The translations under genes and the position numbers were made by a program. The notes under the pieces are model-generated. The model was not told where the DNA came from. It was given only the letters and a program-made list of their open reading frames with translations, and did not search any database. Below, piece after piece: positions 53,824-64,000 of a stretch of DNA of 64,000 bases. How positions within the stretch are numbered: position 1 is the first letter of the stretch; every line of letters begins with the position of its first letter. This DNA is from an uncultured Acidobacteriota bacterium (lineage in GTDB: Bacteria > Acidobacteriota > UBA6911 > RPQK01 > JAPXNP01): NCBI GenBank assembly GCA_963777605.1, contig CAVZRV010000007.1:128001-192000 (forward strand). Direction: 5' to 3'.

Positions 53824-54264
53824 TCAGCCCGACCGTCCACCATTTCAGCGATGAAACCGGAATTGACCCCTGACAGGTTCCACGTTCAATGTTCCAGGTT
53901 CAACGAGGTTTCTACTATTGAACGGCAAGCTTGATGTGTACATGGGCCGGGCCTGCACGGGCCGGTGACCTCCCTCGGCCCCAACTCCCCACGCTGCGAA
54001 ACCATAGCACTCCCGGACCCAGGAACCAGAAACCAGAAAACCCCCACCCCGCCACTTTCGGCCGGTTCCGACATCGTTTTCGCAATATTGCGCGATATTG
54101 CGTTTTATTTCGCTTTTCCGATTCGAGCGTTTCCCCCAGAATTTGAGGGCTAATGCCAAACCACGACGTCCTCCAACACGTTCTCGAATGGAAACTTGGT
54201 CACGATTGTGCGTCGGATCACCAAGCTGAACCGCGAGAATGCCGAAGTAGATAACTGAAAGCCT

Positions 54265-54972
54265 ATGCGCGCACGCGATCGGAGAAAACATCCACGGTAC
54301 GATTTCAATTTCGAAGCGACTGTCAATGAAACGAAGGGGGACAGCGAATTTCCGGCACGGTTTCAGAACTTTTCCCGGGGAGGAGCCTATTTCATTGGGA
54401 AGCAAGCCCTTTCAGCGGGAGACAATGTCGAGATCCGGATGGGAGACGGTCTGCTGATCACCGGAGAAGTGCTCCGTGTCGAGCAACTCTTCGACGATCA
54501 CTTTGGTTTTGCGGTCAAATTCACAACCACCGAAGACTCTTTCAACGGTTCCGATGAAAGTTTAGATCGGCCCAGTGATACCAACGGAGTTCTGGCAGAG
54601 CTCTTCCAGCTCGAATTGCGCACTCTGAACGAACGGGCTTTCGCATACTATCCCCGCCTCGAACGGGTCAGGGCCTACGTAGAGGACAACCTGACGGAGG
54701 AAATCACCCTGGAAGATGCTGCCAATGTCGCAGCCATGGAACGAACCTATTTCAGTTACTTCTTCCGGCAGAAATTGGGAGTTACCTTCAGTGCCTGGCT
54801 CCAGTACCTTCGGGTTTCACGCGCCCTGGTGCTGATTCGCTCGAGGGACCACTCAATCACTGAGGTCGCCTTTGCCGTCGGCTTCAACGAGCTCAGCACC
54901 TTTCAGAAAGCATTCAAGCGCTGGACCAGCCTGACCCCGAGAGATTTCAAGAAACTGGCTCGGCCGGCATAA
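54265..54972 (+). CDS. PilZ-AraC fusion transcriptional regulator, copy 1
   Basis: RKHPR (RxxxR) and NFSRGG (NxSxxG) PilZ motifs; C-terminal AraC double HTH ITEVAFAVGFNELSTFQKAFKRWTSLTPRDF. Confidence 0.9.
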   Translation: MRARDRRKHPRYDFNFEATVNETKGDSEFPARFQNFSRGGAYFIGKQALSAGDNVEIRMGDGLLITGEVLRVEQLFDDHFGFAVKFTTTEDSFNGSDESLDRPSDTNGVLAELFQLELRTLNERAFAYYPRLERVRAYVEDNLTEEITLEDAANVAAMERTYFSYFFRQKLGVTFSAWLQYLRVSRALVLIRSRDHSITEVAFAVGFNELSTFQKAFKRWTSLTPRDFKKLARPA

Positions 54973-55047
54973 AAGGCAATCGGACATTCTGTATTCGAGC
55001 CAGAATTAATGACTTGTCATGAGTTTGCCGATCTAATCAGTAACACC

Positions 55048-55737
55048 ATGTCACGCGACAGCCGCAAGTATCCAAGACAGGAGGTCGATCTCAGAGCAAC
55101 GCTCTCGAACAGGAAAGAGCCCTCTGATGACTACGTCAACCTTCGCAACATCAGCCGGGCAGGTGCCTACTTCATCACCGGCCAGAATCTTCGGAAAGGT
55201 GAGGCTATCGAAATCAAGCTCGGCGATGGGCTCAAGGCCTCGGGCCACGTCGTCCGACTGACTCCGCTGTTTGGCGACCGATTTGGAGTTGCGGTCAAGT
55301 TCGAGTCTGTGTCAGAGAATGGCAACGGAGACTTCGAGATCGGCAACTCCGATGCGGTCGGCGAAATATACCAACTCGAACTCAAGGAGTGCAGGGGGGA
55401 GGCCTTCGAGTACTATCCTCGCCTGAAAAGGGTCCAGGACTACGTCATGGCCAATTTCGAGGAGACGATTACCTTGGCCCAGGCGGCGGAAGTCGCCACG
55501 ATGGAGAAGACCTACTTCAGCTTTTTCTTCCACGAAAAGGTCGGCGTAACATTTCGGGATTGGCTCCAGTATCTCCGAATCACCCGCGCCCTCGAGATGA
55601 TGGCCGAACAGGATCACTCCATTACCGAGGTTGCCTTCGCCGTCGGGTTCAACGAACTCAGCACTTTTCAAAAGGCATTCAAACGCTGGACCAGTCTCAC
55701 CCCCCGCGACTTCAAACGCCTGGCCCGCCCGGCGTGA
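55048..55737 (+). CDS. PilZ-AraC fusion transcriptional regulator, copy 2
   Basis: RKYPR, NISRAG; same AraC HTH; start placed by alignment with the paralogs. Confidence 0.9.
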   Translation: MSRDSRKYPRQEVDLRATLSNRKEPSDDYVNLRNISRAGAYFITGQNLRKGEAIEIKLGDGLKASGHVVRLTPLFGDRFGVAVKFESVSENGNGDFEIGNSDAVGEIYQLELKECRGEAFEYYPRLKRVQDYVMANFEETITLAQAAEVATMEKTYFSFFFHEKVGVTFRDWLQYLRITRALEMMAEQDHSITEVAFAVGFNELSTFQKAFKRWTSLTPRDFKRLARPA

Positions 55738-56024
55738 CCCTCTACTCGGCCGGCCTCCCCTGACAGGACTGAACATTGCTCTCCAATTCGGGAATTTCAT
55801 CCGGATGCGTTCTCCGGCCCACGGTCAACTCCTACACCTTTAGGCGCCCGAAGCCGTAAAACCTCTTGCAATCTCACCTGTAACCACTTCACAATAGCTG
55901 CAACGTTGGAGGGTGGTGAACCAGTCATCTCGTGTTACTGAGGTGGTTCATATAACTTCTGCTGCCTGTTCGCGATGCGGCGGAGCACTCTTGCCAATGG
56001 TTCACGACTGAGGTTATCGGGCGT

Positions 56025-56711
56025 ATGGGGGACGAGAAACGCAGGGCGGTTCGGTTCGATGTCAGCCTGCCCGCCTGTATCGAAGATATCGATACGGGCA
56101 AGCAAACCGCAATCCGGTTCCAGAATCTGAGCAAGACAGGAGCCTACTTCCTGACTGAATTCCGCATCATCGCGGGCGACTGGGTCGTTATTCAGTTGGG
56201 CGATGGGCTGGTCGTCACGGCCCAGGTTGTCCGCTCGGAAGAACTTTTTCCCGATCAGTTTGGTGTCTCGATCCAATTCGCCCAGAACAACGGCAGGAAC
56301 GAAGTTGGCGACTTTGATGGATCCCATCTCCTGGGGGACATCTACCAGCTTGAACTCCGCGAGATCAACGAGGAAGCGTTCAGCTACTACCCCCGACTGA
56401 AGCGGGTCCGCGATTTTGTGGAATCGCGGTACGGCGAGTCGATCTCCCTCGAAGAAATTTCGGGCGTCGCCGCCATGGAGAAGACCTATTTCAGTTACTT
56501 CTTCCACCAGAAGATCGGCGTCACGTTTTGCGTCTGGCTTCAATACGTCCGGATCAAGAAGGCCCTGGAACTCATCAAAGCAAGGGATCGAACCATCACC
56601 GAAGTCGCCTTCGAGGTCGGCTTCAACGAAATCAGCACCTTCCAGAAAGCCTTCAAACGCTGGACCAGCCTGACCCCAAGAGACTTCAAGAAAATCACCC
56701 GCCCGTCGTAG
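56025..56711 (+). CDS. PilZ-AraC fusion transcriptional regulator, copy 3
   Basis: RRAVR, NLSKTG; AraC HTH ITEVAFEVGFNEISTFQKAFKRWTSLTPRDF. Confidence 0.9.
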   Translation: MGDEKRRAVRFDVSLPACIEDIDTGKQTAIRFQNLSKTGAYFLTEFRIIAGDWVVIQLGDGLVVTAQVVRSEELFPDQFGVSIQFAQNNGRNEVGDFDGSHLLGDIYQLELREINEEAFSYYPRLKRVRDFVESRYGESISLEEISGVAAMEKTYFSYFFHQKIGVTFCVWLQYVRIKKALELIKARDRTITEVAFEVGFNEISTFQKAFKRWTSLTPRDFKKITRPS

Positions 56712-56883
56712 GATACCGTAGGACAACCTTCCAGGTTGTCGCGTAAACGGAGCCGCCGGCCCCGGCATAGTGCGGGGCTGACCACTGTTTCGGGTGTTGA
56801 TGGTCGGAGTTGACGGTCACTTTGCCAGGACTGACAACTACGATCCCGAGACAACCTGGAAGGTTGTCCTACGGTGTGCTACG
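56707..56883. repeat. REPIN-like unit 1 (inverted pair of GTAG-type REPs, family A)
   Basis: GTAG-GACAACC-TTCCA-GGTTGTC at 56718-56740, exact inverted copy at 56850-56872. Confidence 0.88.
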
Positions 56884-57511
56884 AGACAAGGCCGATTCCG
56901 GTCACCAGCGTGAACTCACCTTCGTGCAGCCCCGCGTTTACTGGATTGCCCCTGATGTACTGCCTTACTCGTTCAAGTTCCGCCCAGTCCCGGACAATTC
57001 GATCGAAGCTCTCGTGAAACCAGAACAGCCCACTCTGTCCCAATAGTTCGTTGACCCGTAATGCGGTGAACGACTTCCAGCTATGGAGAATCTCCTTCAA
57101 TCGCCATCCTTTGATCGGTTTGAAAAGCGTGTGAACGTGATTCGGCATGACCACCGACTCATCCAAAGAGTACCGAATTCCGTCGAAGTAGAGCAGCGCC
57201 TCTTCCACAACCTGCGAGCTTTCACGCCACCGAAGCGGACAGGCGCCCTCCTGCTGGTCAAGCCATCCATCGAGCTTGTGGAACATGAGTCGGCAATAGT
57301 CATCATAGTCACCGTCGCTCCAAGGTGGAGGATGGAAACGACGCCAGAGCTCACGCTCCTTCTCAAGGGATTCCAGACGCTCGACAGGCAGCGAATCCGC
57401 CGTCCGAAACGTCACGAAGTACGTGGCACCATCCTGTTCCCAGTGAGGAAGGTGGCGATACGACGTTCGAACCGGTTCCTCCGGATCGAACGGCCTGAAC
57501 TGGTTCTCCAT
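56879..57511 (-). mobile_element. REP-associated tyrosine transposase (RAYT, HUH/Y1)
   Basis: LPHW, YFVTFR..DS, VMPNHVHTL (HUH), WKSFTA, FW..ESFDRIVRD, YIRGNP; flanked on both sides by REPs. Confidence 0.92.
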
Positions 57512-57554
57512 ACCATCAATAACGTCGAACCAGCAAAATCCACGGAAAATAAAC

Positions 57555-57690
57555 GTAGGACAACCTTCCAGGTTGTCGCGTGGGCATGGCACAACCCACG
57601 TCGATCCAGGCATACCAGAATCGCGGGTTGACGGTCACTTTGCCAGGACTGGCAACTGCGATCCCGAGACAACCTGGAAGGTTGTCCTAC
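57555..57690. repeat. REPIN-like unit 2 (family A)
   Basis: Same 23-mer at 57555-57577 and inverted at 57668-57690; the last ~63 bp nearly identical to 56810-56872. Confidence 0.88.
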
Positions 57691-59505
57691 CTTGCTGCAA
57701 GATTGATTTGTCGTCGGCGAGAGACAGGCGGAGTCGGTTCTCTTCGGCCACCTCGGAAGGCCAGTGCCAACAGCAGCAGGCAAAAGAGGCCGTACAGTTG
57801 AAGGAACCGGGGGAAGTAGACGACCAACCACCCGGGCACTCCGGACGTGGGCACGGGAGCTCCCGAGCGAGGGCTCACCACATAACCGGCAAACGATGGA
57901 TCGTCCTCAGCCGGTACAGCTTCCGAAACCATCACAGGGGTATCCGCCTTTTCAGCGAGTTCTGGTTTGGAAGGCGCAGGACTCGCTTCGACGGCCTCGG
58001 CCCCATTATCGGTGACCCAAAACCGCAGCACCGATGCCGCAGCAGGCGTCCTCGAGACAGGAACCTCCACCGATTCAGGAGACTGACCTCGCGGTTCACC
58101 AGGCTCATTCACAGGGGTCCGGCTGACATCAATACGCCCCTTCCGATCGATCGTAACCACCCGGACATCTTCGGAGCCAGCCTCAACCGCAGACCGCCGC
58201 GCGAGTCGGACAAGGTCGCTCGCACCAGTCTGACCAGCCTTGTCCTGGATTTCGCCCCCACCCTGACGACTCTCTGCTCCGATCACGGCCACGGGAGCAA
58301 TCGCCTCGAACCGAGGCTCCGCCACCGGCATGCTTAGACCGTTCGCCAATTGTGAAGTCGTTGAGGAAATTCAAGAGCCGGTTCACTATCCAGCGCCAAC
58401 TCGATTGAGGAGTTAACTGCCCGGTCAGCTTCGCGTAGCCATCCGGCGATCTGACCAGGCTGGCCCGAACTTCCGTCTCGAGATCGACGGCAGCGCCCAA
58501 ACTGGGCGCGGGAGGAGGATTCGCATCCCGAGCCTTTTCCGCGGCCATCTGAACTGCCTCACCGAAGGGGCGCAAAAAGACTACGGCGGGGGGCGGCACG
58601 TGAGAATCGGCCTCGGACAAGCTCAACCGGGCCGGCGCGTTCTGCGGATCCAGTTGGAGCGCGACCAGAAAGGCCCGCTGAGCATCAGGCCAGCGCCGCT
58701 CGCCGGAATAGAGGTCGCCGATGCGGTTCCACGCTTCAGAGGGCGGCATCAATCGCTCAAGTTCTTCGAGAGCCCGGTTTTCGTCGCCTGATAGAAGCGT
58801 AGCGATCGCAAATGCCTCACGGGCATCTCGATTTTCAGGCTCAACCTCCAGTACCCGCTCCAGCACTCCTTGAGCCTGGCCATAATCGCGCAATCGGTTC
58901 AACGTAAAACCCAGTCGTGTCATGATGCGGACATTACCAGGGTGGCGATGAAGGGCCCCGAACAGCACGTCGCGGGCCTCTGCGTCATTTCCCGCCTCCG
59001 AATAGGCTTCAGCCAGGAAAAGCCAGTAATTCGCCACCCCTGGATCCAGTTCGAGCGCCGCCTGGATCTGCTCGACGGCCTTGAAGCTGTTCCCCAACTC
59101 GAGCCAGGTCTGTGCCAACCCGTAATGCGCTGAAGCAGAGTCAGGAATTTCCTCGAGAACCGCCTCGAATTCAGCCGCCGCCGGCCACAACAAGCCCGTC
59201 TCCCTTAACCGGTTTGCACGAGCAAGTCTTTGGCCAACAGAAGCGTTTTCGGCATTCAACGGAAAAGGGGCGTTCAGGTCAGGACCGGCAATCTCTCCAG
59301 CCCGCAGGTAGTTTTCAGCCGACGTCCGAAAGACCCCTCGAATCGAATCAGAGAGGTTCCCGGGCTTCGCCGGCCCATATACCTGCTTGCCGACCAACGG
59401 CTGGTGGACAGCGACCTGGCGTTGAGTACAGCCGAACAGGACGAGATTGGCACCGCAAGCTACGACCACGAGCCGTTTGCAGAGTGTCCCGCCACATCCG
59501 TTCAC
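57687..59505 (-). CDS. TPR lipoprotein at the end of the Tad locus (TadD-like), probable frameshift near 58345
   Basis: Lipobox LFGC and multiple TPRs in 58183-59505; overlapping ORF 57687-58349 continues with a low-complexity region and a C-terminal TM. Confidence 0.7.
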
Positions 59506-60434
59506 TGTCCTCCCCCCATCGCTCCCAGCAGATTCTTGTAAATCGCCAGGATCGCCGGACCCGCCAGGACCACGAGGATCGCCGGGAAAACAAAGAGAAT
59601 CAGCGGGAACACCATCTTGACCGCGAGCTTCGCCGCAATCTCTTCCGCCCGCTGTCTCCGCTTGATGCGGAGATCGTCGGCAAAGACCCGTAGGGTCTGC
59701 CCTACGCTGGTCCCGAACCGGTCGGCCTGGATGAGGACCGCGGCAAAGGATCTCAGTTCATCCACGCCGGTGCGGGCGGCCAGGTTTCTCAAGGCCTCGG
59801 CGCGGGTCCGGCCGGCGTTGACCTCGAGGCCGTACAGTCGCAACTCGTCGCCCAGGTCGGGGTGGGGCAGGCTGATCTCGCGGCCGACCCGCTGGATGGT
59901 CTGGTCGAGCCCCATTCCCGATTCGACACAGACCACCGACAGGTCCATGAAATCAGGGAGGCCCCACTCGATCCTCTGCTTACGCCCTCGAATTTTCCAG
60001 CTGAGCCAGAGCCCCGGCAATATCATCCCGATCACGATCGCCCCGAGAAGGCTCAACAGGAAGTAGGTCCAGAGAAGGCCGGTAACAGCGGCCAGCGCGA
60101 GGGCCGCGAGAGCAAGGAGCACCCTGCGCTCCCCAGAAGACGAAGACGGCATCCCGGTTCCGATAACCCGGCCTGAACGAGCTGTTTCTCCTCCTTGGAC
60201 AGGTCGTCGGGCGGCCTCGGGATCATCTGCCCGATGGGGCGTGCCACCGCCTTGAACCGCTCACCCACATCGGACCAATTCCAGCCGCCGACCCTTCTTT
60301 TCCTCCTCGGAGAGACGCCGCTCGAGGCGAAGCCGCGGCCGGATGAGGACGTAGAGCAGCGCGAAAAGACCTGCCGAGAAGAGCAGAAAAAGCAAGGCGA
60401 TCAACAATGCGGTCGGAACCGGTAATCCACTCAT
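59502..60434 (-). CDS. tadC: Tad pilus inner membrane protein TadC (T2SS F family), 5' frameshifts
   Basis: LPDFMDL.VVCVESG.GLDQ, IQADRFGTS, RRQRAEE.AAKL.VKMVFP; N-terminus MSGLPVP.. starts at 60434 (ATGA overlap) across several frames. Confidence 0.88.
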
Positions 60435-61400
60435 ACTTTCAAATTCACCAGGCGACGAATGACGAGATATCCCAAAATCTGGAGAACAGCGGCAACCTCC
60501 AGCATCCGGAGTGCCGTCCGGATCGGTGAACAGCCGTCCAATGTACCCGGGTTCAAAAAGTAGATCGCCACAACCAGAAACGGGGGCAGAGCAAGGAGGA
60601 CGTACATCGACATCTTGCCCTCCGCCGCGTAAATGCGGACCTGCTGCAGGAGCCGGAAGCGCTCGCGAACGATGGCCGCCAGTTTGTCCAGAACTTCGGC
60701 CAGGTTTCCGCCCGATTCACTCTGGATCTGCAGCGTGGAGACGAAAATCCTCACGTCAGGCAGGGGAACCCGGACGCTCAAGTTGTTGAGCGCATCTCTC
60801 AGGGGCAGGCCCAGGTTTTGCTGCTCGTAAGTCTTGCGAAACTCCTGGGCGATCGGATCGGGCATCTCGTCGGCGATCACGAGCAGGCCCGAGGTGAACG
60901 CATAGCCCGCGCGAACCGCTCTCGAAAGGATGTCCAGGGCGTCGGGCAACTGGCGCTCGAACTGGTTGAGCCTCCGGTATCGCTTGTACGCCAGGCGAAT
61001 TGACGGGATCGAGGCAAGCATCGCGATGAGCAGCAGGGCAATGACGATCGGCAACCCTGAGCAGAAGCGCAACCAGAAGCCCCGCGAGGGTCAGAATGAG
61101 GGAGACGGTCATCCAGTAGGCCGCACTCTTGCGGGTCCCGGACTGGGCCACGAAGAGCTGAAACCGCCGGGTCAGCAGAGTCTCGGAAACCAGCCGATTC
61201 AGGAAGGTCTGATCGGCCTGCTGAAACCCCTCGCTCGCCCCCTGCAACTCCGCCCCGCCCAATGCCCACTCGGGAAGGGATTCGAGGCGGCGACGGACCT
61301 CTTTGCGCCGGGAGGGCACGACTATAAGAATGTAGAGGAAGCTGGAGACCAGCAGAAGGAGGCAGACGAACAGAAGGATCAGGATCGTGGGCGTGCTCAT
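60431..61400 (-). CDS. tadB: Tad pilus inner membrane protein TadB, frameshift near 61060
   Basis: [39 protein letters not shown]; N-terminal part in ORF 60756-61400. Confidence 0.88.
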
Positions 61401-62701
61401 CCGATGACCTCGCGGTAGCCGTGCACGGCGAACATCTCGGCCGGAAGCTGAATGCCGGCAGCCTGGAGCTTCTCCGTGAACCGGGGCCGAACGCCGGTGG
61501 CCGTAAACTGGCCCCGAACGCGCCCCTTTTCGTCGAAGCCGGCCCGCTTGAAGACAAACAGCTCCTGCATCGTCACAACCGGCCCCTCCATCCCGGTAAT
61601 CTCGGAGATATTGGTGATCCGCCTGGACCCGTCGGAAAGCCGGCTGATCTGGATGACCAGTTCAATCGCCGAGGCGATCTGCTGGCGGATTGCCTTGTCG
61701 GGCAACTGGAGGGCCGCCATGGAAACCATCGTCTCGAGTCGCGCCAGGGCGTCACGGGGCGAATTGGAGTGGATCGTGGTCAGCGAACCCTCGTGGCCCG
61801 TGTTCATGGCCTGGAGCATGTCGAGGGCCTCGGAACCCCGAACCTCGCCGACGATGATCCGGTCGGGGCGCATCCGGAGTGCATTGATCACCAACTCGCG
61901 CTGGCGGACGGCGCCCTTTCCCTCCACGTTCGGGGGCCGGGTCTCGAGACGAACCACGTGCTCCTGGCGGAGTTGCAGTTCGGCGGCGTCCTCGATCGTG
62001 ACGATCCGCTCTTTGTTAGGGATCGACGCCGAAAGCACGTTCAAGAGTGTGGTCTTGCCAGCGCCGGTCCCACCCGAGATGAGGACGTTCAACTTGGCCT
62101 GGACCGACGCCTGGAGGAGCTCCAACATTGGAGCCGTCACCGTCTGGTTGTGAAGCAGATCGGAGGCCCGCAACGGATCGATGCCGAACCGCCGGATCGA
62201 GAGGACCGGCCCGTCCAAGGCCAGGGGCGGAATGATGGCGTTGACCCGGGAACCGTCGGGAAGCCGGGCATCGACCATGGGAGACGATTCGTCCACGCGC
62301 CGGCCGACGCGGGCCACGATCCGGTCGATGATCCGCTTCAGATGCTGGTCGTCGTTGAACTGGATCGCCGTCTTCTCGAGCAGGCCTCGCCGCTCGATGT
62401 AAACCGACCCGTAGCCGTTGACCAGGATGTCCGAGATCGACGGGTCGCCCAGGAGAGGCTCCAGCGGCCCCAGGCCGAAAAGCTCGTCGGTGATTTCCTT
62501 GGTGACCCGCTCGCGCTCCGACGAGGTCAGCGGCGCATTGTCCCGCTCCAGGGTCAGCCGAATGATCCGTCGGGTCTCCTGGAGTGCGGTCTCCCGCTTC
62601 ATCTTGTCGAGTTGTTCCAGGTCGATCTCCTCCACGACTCGATGGTGGAGTTCCTGCTTGATCCGCTGAATTTCCGATAATGCTGTTTGCTGCTCGCTCA
62701 A
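61397..62701 (-). CDS. tadA: Tad pilus ATPase TadA/CpaF
   Basis: [62 protein letters not shown]. Confidence 0.97.
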
Positions 62702-62715
62702 ATAAGCGTCCTCTC

Positions 62716-63888
62716 CTACGAAAAAAGCCCCAGCAATCCCTTTCTCTTTTTGGCCTTCTTGAGTCCGGTCAGGGCTTCGGCCAGGCCCAGGTAGCTCTGG
62801 GCCAGGTTGGAGTGGTTGACCTCGACGACTGCTCGGCCGGCATTGAGGGCCTGAATCGTGGACCGGTAGTTGTTCGGCACCTGCCAGAAGATCTTCTTCT
62901 TCAATGTCTTCTCAATATCTCCGGAACTGATATCCCCGCCCGACTGCGCCCTATTCAAAAGAAGCTTCAGCTTGGGATCGAGCCCCCCCTGCTCCAGGAA
63001 CTGGATCAGGTGCAGGGTCCTCCAGACCGCGGGGATCTCCGCCGTGAGAACCACCAGGACCTCGTCGGCCCGCTCGACCGCCGTCTGAAGGATCTCTTCG
63101 CTGATCGCCCCGGAAAGGTCGAGGACCGAGTGGGAGAAGGACTCGGACAGCACGCTGATCAACCGGGAGACCGACTGCAATGCCGACTCGGGCGAGGGCT
63201 CGATCCGGGCCTGACCCGCCAGGACATGAATTCCCGCCTTGGTCGTCATGAAGGTCTCGAGCAGGACCGGATCGAGCCGGGAGGCCGCCTTCAGGGCGTC
63301 GTTCAAGGTGTACTTGGGCTTGAGGCCCAGGTAGGCGGCCACGTCCCCCAGGGGATGGCTCAGGTCGGCCAGGGCAACCCGGGTGCCGGGCAATTCCCCC
63401 GCGGAGGCCGCCAGGTTGATCGCCACCGACGTCGACCCGCACCCTCCCTTGGCCGAGGTGACCGCATAGACCTTTCCGGCCTTTCTCTGCTTCTTCGGGT
63501 TCTCGGCCAGGTACCGTTCAAAGGCCTGCCGGACCGTATCGGGCGAAACCGGCTGGGTCAGAAACTCCCGCGCCCCGGCCCGAACGGCCTCGATCACCGA
63601 CTGGGCGTCGGTTGCCCTCTCCACGGCGAAAATCCAGGCCGCCGGCAAATCCTGCCGGAGGTGCCCGATCAAGGCCAGCAACAAGAGTGGCGCCGTCTCG
63701 GCCTCGACCAGGACGATCTCGGGTTGGGACTGTCTGAATTCGGCCCGGGCGGCACCCCCCCGAAAGGTCTGGCCGTCCGACTGGCCAACCACGATGGCCC
63801 CCTCAGGGAAGCACCGGGACAGCATCGCCCGGCTCGCCGGGCCGGGCGCGATCAGGCCGACTTTCGAGGACCGAGGAGAGGGCTTCAC
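62716..63888 (-). CDS. cpaE: Tad pilus localisation protein CpaE/TadZ
   Basis: Degenerate receiver ([10 protein letters not shown]) plus MinD-like [14 protein letters not shown]; true start may be ATG 63892 with a frameshift. Confidence 0.88.
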
Positions 63889-63908
63889 TCATGGCCGTCC
63901 ACCTGGGT

Positions 63909-64000
63909 TCATCGGCCGTCTTCTCGGGACTTCACTTCCGAATCGAACGTTCCCTGGTCGAGAAAGTCACCCGGGAACGGCAACTCGGGAACCTGGTCGG
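63909..64000 (-). CDS. C-terminal fragment of the upstream Tad gene, probably the secretin CpaC/RcpA
   Basis: Reads ..DQVPELPFPGDFLDQGTFDSEVKSREDGR*; assignment rests mainly on position upstream of cpaE. Confidence 0.45.
   Translation of the reverse strand, partial: DQVPELPFPGDFLDQGTFDSEVKSREDGR

Follow-up and report, generated by a model that had tools for sequence, protein, structure and literature searches.

Only a few proteins, unrelated to one another, are known to place transcription under the control of cyclic di-guanosine monophosphate (c-di-GMP). The present analysis concerns three tandem genes in a stretch of 64,000 nucleotides (the window; G000:C7:128001-192000) from the genome of an uncultured Acidobacteriota bacterium, G000, each encoding a PilZ domain fused to an AraC-type DNA-binding domain, and a nearby Tad (Flp) pilus operon. 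We consider it probable, at roughly 0.6, that all three proteins act as one-component c-di-GMP receptors and switch on transcription of the Tad pilus genes. PilZ-AraC is a real, lineage-restricted and apparently undescribed architecture with a testable predicted regulon.

CuxR of Sinorhizobium is comparable in being an AraC-type protein which binds direct repeats in a c-di-GMP-dependent manner and activates a surface-colonisation output (PMC12560781, PMC10519070). However, CuxR senses its ligand via a cupin domain (PMC10519070), whereas the trio has a true PF07238 barrel and a pilus operon as its candidate target. MrkH of Klebsiella pneumoniae is a PilZ-containing, c-di-GMP-dependent regulator of fimbrial genes (10.1101/814665) and matches our model with a structural Z score of 8.2, but its layout is PilZN2-PilZ without an AraC domain, and the C-terminal helix of its PilZ domain is reported to contact DNA (10.1101/814665). 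The trio proteins, in contrast, have a single barrel and a separate double helix-turn-helix (HTH), and that helix is absent from the model. The general logic, c-di-GMP acting on adhesion genes through an AraC or a PilZ protein, thus already has precedents in CuxR and MrkH, which one review treats as separate kinds (PMC10519070). The best structural match of the N-terminal domain, PA0012/TssZ of Pseudomonas aeruginosa, is a PilZ protein controlling a transcription factor, HinK (PMC10912698); unlike in the trio, these are two separate proteins, TssZ is an inhibitor at low c-di-GMP, and its partner is not of the AraC type (PMC10912698). In its spacing, the candidate DNA site described below resembles those of XylS, FoxR and AraC class II activation, with two half-sites 21 bp apart of which the proximal one reaches the -35 (PMC9804782; -70/-56 and -49/-35 for XylS, -62/-56 and -41/-35 for FoxR), but the effector domain here is PilZ rather than the usual sugar- or aromatic-binding domain. 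An action of c-di-GMP on Tad pili is described for Caulobacter (PMC6581867). AraC goes unmentioned in the accessible text of a PilZ survey (10.1101/814665) and of a 2023 review (PMC10333796). Our literature search found no PilZ-AraC fusion and no such regulon, subscription papers and InterPro architecture tables, which may list the architecture, lying outside its scope; a search on Acidobacteria with PilZ listed no study of a c-di-GMP regulon in Acidobacteriota.

Architecture and age of the PilZ-AraC trio

All three genes are on the forward strand and represent the groups A (54265..54972, 235 aa), B (55009..55737, 242 aa when read from 55009) and C (56025..56711, 228 aa). For group B, the ATG at 55048 is the likelier start, because the resulting 229 aa match the length of three orthologues (P0008, P0011, P0013). 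Each open reading frame exceeds the Pfam cut-offs for PilZ (PF07238; 40.8, 31.7 and 26.7 bits, cut-off 22.5) and for HTH_18 (PF12833; 77.3, 75.5 and 69.1 bits, cut-off 33.6). The C-terminal double-HTH domain of approx. 100 aa is above cut-off for both PF12833 and PF00165, as is characteristic of AraC/XylS proteins, and none of the NCBIfam AraC equivalogs listed reaches its own cut-off on the trio proteins. No cupin family was found in the trio by Pfam at E up to 0.1; the N-terminal domain is PF07238. Both c-di-GMP motifs, RxxxR and [DN]hSxxG, are present in every copy (RKHPR/NFSRGG, RKYPR/NISRAG and RRAVR/NLSKTG, h being F, I and L, respectively). Thus, three co-oriented PilZ + AraC paralogues of approx. 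230 aa with intact ligand motifs, as proposed in a first-pass annotation of this DNA, were found. The conserved linker reported there stood up in part: a QLEL-like motif and F.YY do recur, but the region really consists of three parts. In the group A protein, the PilZ domain (residues 5-88) is followed by a variable acidic spacer (89-113; 10-16% identity, predicted local distance difference test score (pLDDT) < 50), the QLEL motif (114-118) and the AraC domain (approx. 124-235), of which F.YY marks the beginning in this subfamily (47/49 fused and 83/107 stand-alone relatives). The QLEL-like motif is specific to the fusions (42/49 fused vs 1/107 stand-alone relatives) and may be a contact which stands in for the PilZ helix.

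An AlphaFold2 model was obtained for the group A copy from a 49-row alignment (mean pLDDT 83.6, predicted template modelling score (pTM) 0.53). It has a six-stranded barrel at residues 16-86 (pLDDT 83-95 by block), a disordered stretch at residues 90-108 and then an all-helical C-terminal domain; the only helix past the barrel comprises seven residues (107-113) in a low-confidence stretch. A separate N-terminal domain on a flexible linker is seen in this model (pTM 0.53). Among 48,161 PDB representatives, the N-terminal domain matched c-di-GMP-bound PA0012 best (8u0i; Z 12.9, root-mean-square deviation 1.7 Å over 79 residues), so that the barrel expected from the first-pass annotation was indeed predicted. 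Other PilZ structures scored Z 11.2 (1yln) and 8.2 (MrkH); further structural matches were AraC domains and other PilZ proteins, and Foldseek agrees. The C-terminal domain reached Z 12.3 with the AdpA and YesN domains. By sequence, the PDB yielded AraC domains and one weak PilZ match (3kyg, E 0.62), and the ESM Atlas generic AraC clusters only (0.79). Galperin and Chou count a long helix after the barrel as part of a canonical PilZ domain (10.1101/814665); as modelled, the N-terminal domain is a PilZ barrel with intact motifs, outside the full canonical class.

Identity between the paralogues amounts to 35-45% in PilZ, 57-64% in the first HTH, 71-84% in the second HTH and 92-96% in residues 205-230. 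Synonymous differences in the second HTH (0.59-0.73 per site) far exceed non-synonymous ones (0.11-0.19). In a quick tree search, groups A, B and C received supports of 99, 100 and 99, and each protein half separately recovered the same three groups; PilZ identity is 62-71% within groups and 34-41% between them. Judged by these alignments, the three copies are old orthologous groups, in line with the initial claim of old duplicates under purifying selection. Gene conversion as a cause of the conserved 3' ends was considered and rejected, since synonymous sites are near saturation in paralogues and orthologues alike and both halves give the same groups. The recognition regions had been noted as almost invariant among the three copies. 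Their identity is very high, but the recognition helices are shared with seven relatives outside the three groups and therefore reflect a family-wide constraint, nothing special to the trio. A shared DNA target of the three copies remains plausible, but follows from this family-wide conservation. Immediately ahead of RxxxR, the three copies differ (R, S and K), and the position also varies within group B (S, G, A or R); the residue there may influence c-di-GMP binding.

A candidate target element at pilus promoters

In G000, a Tad pilus operon lies to the right of the trio and is oriented toward it, as is the case in G014. Its distal part, encoding TPR/TadD-like, TadC, TadB, CpaF ATPase and CpaE-like proteins, lies within the window (58183..63888, reverse strand) and is the candidate regulated operon. 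Linkage between such regulators and tad occurs in two families: besides the trio in G000 and G014, G026 and G035, which belong to another family, have a divergent PilZ-AraC gene of 222 aa after their tad genes (PilZ 19.8 and 24.4 bits, one just below cut-off). The flp promoters of G000 and G014 have a non-coding element in common, further copies of which occur before tadE of G000 and 17 kb away in G014. The candidate sites in G000 are located beyond the right end of the window, upstream of the flp pilin gene (G000:C7:195034-195074, reverse strand) and of tadE-tadG (G000:C7:196343-196383, forward strand).

A 27-letter pattern built from four G000/G014 sites was searched in 61 genomes with two mismatches allowed. 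It matched 14 times in five genomes (G000 two, G014 three, G009 six, G013 two, G006 one), while the reversed pattern gave no match in the same 61 genomes. Ten sites had played no part in constructing the pattern; four of these precede flp-type pilins and two precede tadE-type genes, while the remaining four all belong to G009 and have no clear pilus gene behind them. Assignment as flp-type pilins relied on the prepilin motif and on similarity to the G014 pilin, which Pfam confirmed; one of these pilin genes is followed by cpaB. Beyond the pattern itself, all 14 sites have a G at position 38, and a TAnnnT hexamer begins at position 59 or 60 in 10/14 sites (7/10 of the new ones; background 0.9%). 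In both tadE sites (G000, G014), a TATGAT hexamer is found at 80 or 81, i.e., one repeat further out. If the hexamer is taken as the predicted -10, the element is a direct repeat with a 21-bp period at about -71/-51 and -50/-30, whose second copy reaches a weak -35. These -35 hexamers are poor matches to the consensus, and the promoter is predicted to be of the sigma70 type.

A matrix derived from the 12 sites outside G000 ranks the flp (35.9) and tadE (32.4) sites of G000 first in that genome, the maximum in the reversed genome being 18.2. A wider regulon in G000 was not retained: the third match (21.2, before a PEP-CTERM-type gene) is near the control of 18.2 and lacks a -10, leaving only flp and tadE as clear sites. 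A looser search in 76 genomes added an flp site and one site without a -10 in G009 as well as an flp site in G003. Of ten other three-mismatch matches, away from flp, 0/10 have a -10, and such matches in other families were treated as chance; a first candidate motif (TTC.TCCGCAAT type) was dropped on account of its scattered matches. A generic promoter scan revealed nothing above chance. Upstream of the trio, no significant site was detected in G000 or G014 (p 0.07-0.67), i.e., no sign of autoregulation; this includes the non-coding leader of the group A gene (54075..54250, forward strand; p 0.067), a probable promoter with short blocks conserved in G014.

The same promoter element precedes three candidate small RNAs in G009 (L099:1305-1454, reverse; L097:1574-1723, forward; L090:950-1099, reverse). 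Each has a long 5' hairpin hiding a stretch that resembles a ribosome-binding site; a second, GC-rich hairpin follows, whose loop is rich in C and U. Their folding z values are -3.5, -2.3 and -3.5, respectively. Rfam gave no match to these candidates.

In a held-out test, 12 flp promoters were each scored against 1000 shuffles; G004, G005, G011, G056, G057, G060 and the second loci of G035 and G040, where the pilin lies outside the sequence retrieved for that locus or at a contig end, were left out of the scoring. Four of the 12 score high, namely G003 and G026 (p 0.001), G035 (0.003) and G032 (0.004), and an intact PilZ-AraC is carried by G003, G026 and G035. In G026 and G035, the repeat unit occurs three times at 21-bp spacing and some of its letters differ; the recognition helices of their regulator are changed too. 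We also compared AraC regulators, using the PF12833 domains of G000, G003, G006, G009, G013 and G014 and of single loci of G026, G032 and G035. PilZ-AraC is the only AraC group common to the site-bearing genomes G000, G003, G009, G013 and G014 (46-90% identity); other AraC domains are at most 38% identical across genera, save one G006-G014 pair at 59%. Variant sites adjoin family genes in G013, G009, G034, G040 and G045 (p 0.002-0.022) and, more weakly, in G052 and G047 (p about 0.04), all p values being uncorrected for the 34 regions tested. Regulator, CpaB and site are absent together from G002 and G010, two near-complete genomes of the same genus as G014. As a separate observation, the flp promoters of family f9 (L141, L142, L145, L146, L148) contain a different conserved element, TTGACA/TTTACA-like repeats approx. 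10 bp apart that end with a consensus -35. This element points to a different flp activator in f9.

Proposed mechanism and competing explanations

We propose that c-di-GMP binds the PilZ barrel and that this would dimerise the protein or free its AraC domain, as c-di-GMP does for CuxR and the effector for XylS. Two AraC domains on tandem half-sites could then recruit RNA polymerase to the weak -35, so that the pilin (flp) and pseudopilin (tadE) genes would be transcribed at high c-di-GMP. The three old paralogues would have one DNA specificity and differ on the input side, i.e., in the PilZ surface and their own promoters, and may act as homo- or heterodimers on two or three half-sites. G000 has eight GGDEF matches, six of which retain an intact GG[DE]EF, as well as one weak EAL match, and five AraC-domain genes in total. 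The c-di-GMP-responsive transcription system envisaged in the first-pass annotation is thus favoured by the fold, the motifs, the six intact GG[DE]EF domains and the candidate AraC-type site at tad, whereas ligand and DNA binding are predictions. Since ligand motif, candidate DNA site and output genes come together, the proposal can be put to the test on purified protein and with a reporter in E. coli, despite the uncultured host. If true, it would tie c-di-GMP directly to the expression of Tad pilus genes and supply Acidobacteriota with a predicted c-di-GMP regulon; it would also yield a compact c-di-GMP sensor of 230 aa with three natural variants, usable in reporters.

On the other hand, several observations weigh against gated activation of the pilus genes. 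The site-bearing genomes are kin, and the site counts given above are, therefore, not independent. Eight of the 12 held-out flp promoters are without a site, and a PilZ-AraC-type gene, degenerate in some cases, is present in six of the genomes concerned. Regulator-bearing genomes without an flp site are G023, G034, G040, G045, G046 and G047; pilus control is therefore not family-wide but exists at best in some lineages. Conversely, a site but no family member was detected in G006 (89% complete, 880 contigs) and G032 (74% complete). The long post-barrel helix of a canonical PilZ domain (class i of Galperin and Chou) is absent from the group A model, and PA0012/TssZ is reported to lose its partner at high c-di-GMP (PMC10912698), so the sign could differ. 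Finally, six of ten tad-locus genes tested in G000 are broken relative to their G014/G013 orthologues, whereas the trio is intact. The breaks affect flp and the gene upstream of it, cpaB, the secretin gene, tadB and tadC (window 58183-64000 and G000:C7:192-196 kb). Their frequency is far higher than elsewhere, where approx. three breaks were counted in some 50 kb of other genes (one frameshift among 40 alignments and two stops among 53; one further flag outside the tad locus was discounted as an artefact of two paralogues). The tad genes of G014 read through. The tadC break in G000 looks like successive frame slips, which fits an assembly error; decay is also possible.

With the same proteins and the same site, the response could also have the opposite sign. 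c-di-GMP could inactivate the regulator, or the regulator could repress by covering the -35, with pili being made at low c-di-GMP. The second half-site does overlap the -35, PA0012/TssZ as the nearest structure acts on its transcription factor at low c-di-GMP (PMC10912698), and, as 107 of the best 150 representatives are stand-alone AraC proteins, the DNA-binding half may work alone with PilZ as a brake. Nevertheless, poor -35 hexamers fit dependence on an activator, characterised AraC/XylS proteins at such a position activate (PMC9804782) and CuxR is activated by c-di-GMP (PMC12560781), so we regard this inversion as distinctly unlikely. It is also unlikely, in our view, that the element belongs to another factor, be it an activator from outside the AraC family or a sigma factor of an unusual kind, while the PilZ-AraC proteins bind c-di-GMP but control, e.g., exopolysaccharide loci. 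Such a division would account for G006 and G032, where the site is present but no regulator was detected, for other family members in loci for polysaccharides or acyl loading (family f9, G005 and G026), and for the lack of a significant site in front of the trio genes (p 0.07-0.67); our co-occurrence comparison covered AraC regulators only. Yet the 21-bp period together with the -35 overlap is the AraC/XylS pattern (PMC9804782), and variant sites adjoin family genes in five genomes; the joint lack of regulator, CpaB and site in G002 and G010 argues in the same direction, though loss of the whole tad locus would explain it equally well.

A PilZ domain acting mainly as a dimerisation or protein-interaction module, with c-di-GMP not being the effector, appears very improbable. 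Motif-less members exist (P0046-48, P0050, L028, G046), the canonical C-terminal helix is missing as noted, and some PilZ domains do not bind c-di-GMP (10.1101/814665), but R7, R11, S37 and G40 are 84-91% conserved whereas many barrel positions are below 50%, and PilZ domains in fusion proteins are reported to keep binding (10.1101/814665). Less improbable, though still doubtful, is a graded series of c-di-GMP affinities among the three copies, as supposed in the first-pass annotation; alternatively, the copies may differ in their expression, their partners or their roles in heterodimers. The retention of three groups in different genomes, with the within- and between-group identities given above and agreement of both protein halves, would suit a graded series, as would R, S and K before RxxxR. 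However, this residue varies inside group B, and the same site is present in G003, G009 and G013, where only one or two copies were detected; a full set of three is thus not required. Separate expression explains the copies equally well, given that 287 bp precede the group C gene in G000 and 250 bp the group B gene in G014.

Taking c-di-GMP-gated activation further, the family could represent an undescribed one-component class of c-di-GMP transcription factors, arisen by grafting PilZ onto a stand-alone AraC protein in one Acidobacteriota order. It might run an attachment regulon of several flp pilins, pseudopilins and a small RNA family from 21-bp arrays, with three paralogues in one lineage tuning pilus output over the c-di-GMP range in mixed dimers. 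We offer this extended picture as a speculation that is improbable in its entirety.

Family distribution and further features

A profile search returned 89 proteins, of which 51 (trio included) cover at least 87% of the query; 39 of the 51 have a precomputed PF07238 match. A second profile search, which was swamped by candidates, added five proteins, none annotated as PilZ. In a 64-row family alignment, in which some rows are one protein from two sources, RxxxR is found in 54, [DN]xSxxG in 50 and both in 45 rows; the ten rows without RxxxR comprise five N-terminally truncated calls and five degenerate sequences. The best 150 representatives at 50% identity include 107 stand-alone AraC proteins, 105-190 aa in length, and 24 proteins with a match to the PilZ half; the fusion is therefore a branch of a larger, mostly stand-alone AraC subfamily. 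Within the order, 21/76 genomes match: 15 from the N-terminus, one cut by a contig end and five in the AraC half only. No fusion was found outside the order in a sample of 401 genomes of the phylum (seven candidates scored per genome), the match in 14 genomes there starting only at profile position 96. By these searches, the PilZ-AraC fusion is a small family confined to one Acidobacteriota order, whose members are named in databases only as AraC-like or HTH proteins.

G014 has A, B and C in the same order behind ychF, plus a broken fourth copy; the latter is frameshifted, group C-like and 3 kb from the trio (L020:7302-7882). Three further sets of A, B and C proteins, the members of each set agreeing in the length of their longest contig (3388, 4773 and 2925, respectively), suggest three more trios. 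Elsewhere, family genes are found in loci for polysaccharides, PEP-CTERM systems or acyl loading, in many cases next to a stand-alone AraC gene of the subfamily. Four such pairs were seen (L026, L033, L034 and L027, in G045, G040, G034 and G023), divergent in three cases and tandem in G023; three of the four adjoin polysaccharide genes, and a variant site lies between the divergent pairs. The same AraC subfamily also occurs behind an N-terminal helical domain judged by eye to be XRE-like (L129-L131, in G040, G049 and G045), and fused to PAS, SCP2, nitroreductase or a second AraC domain (P0172, P0216, P0229, P0095, P0223). In G013, a stand-alone PilZ gene of 99 aa (L190:2595-2891; G013:C555) resembles the N-terminal half of the G009:C317-type regulator and is a split or shortened copy. 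G000 itself contains stand-alone short PilZ genes with intact RxxxR and NLSxxG motifs 33 kb past the window (G000:C7:224921-225199) and on another contig (C8:174381-174647).

Between the trio and the tad genes, a Y1 (IS200-like) transposase is encoded on the reverse strand (56879-57613), with direct and inverted repeats of 27-67 nt on both sides (within 56706-57693). We take it to resemble a REP-associated transposase. Related repeats are also present upstream of flp and in many relatives.

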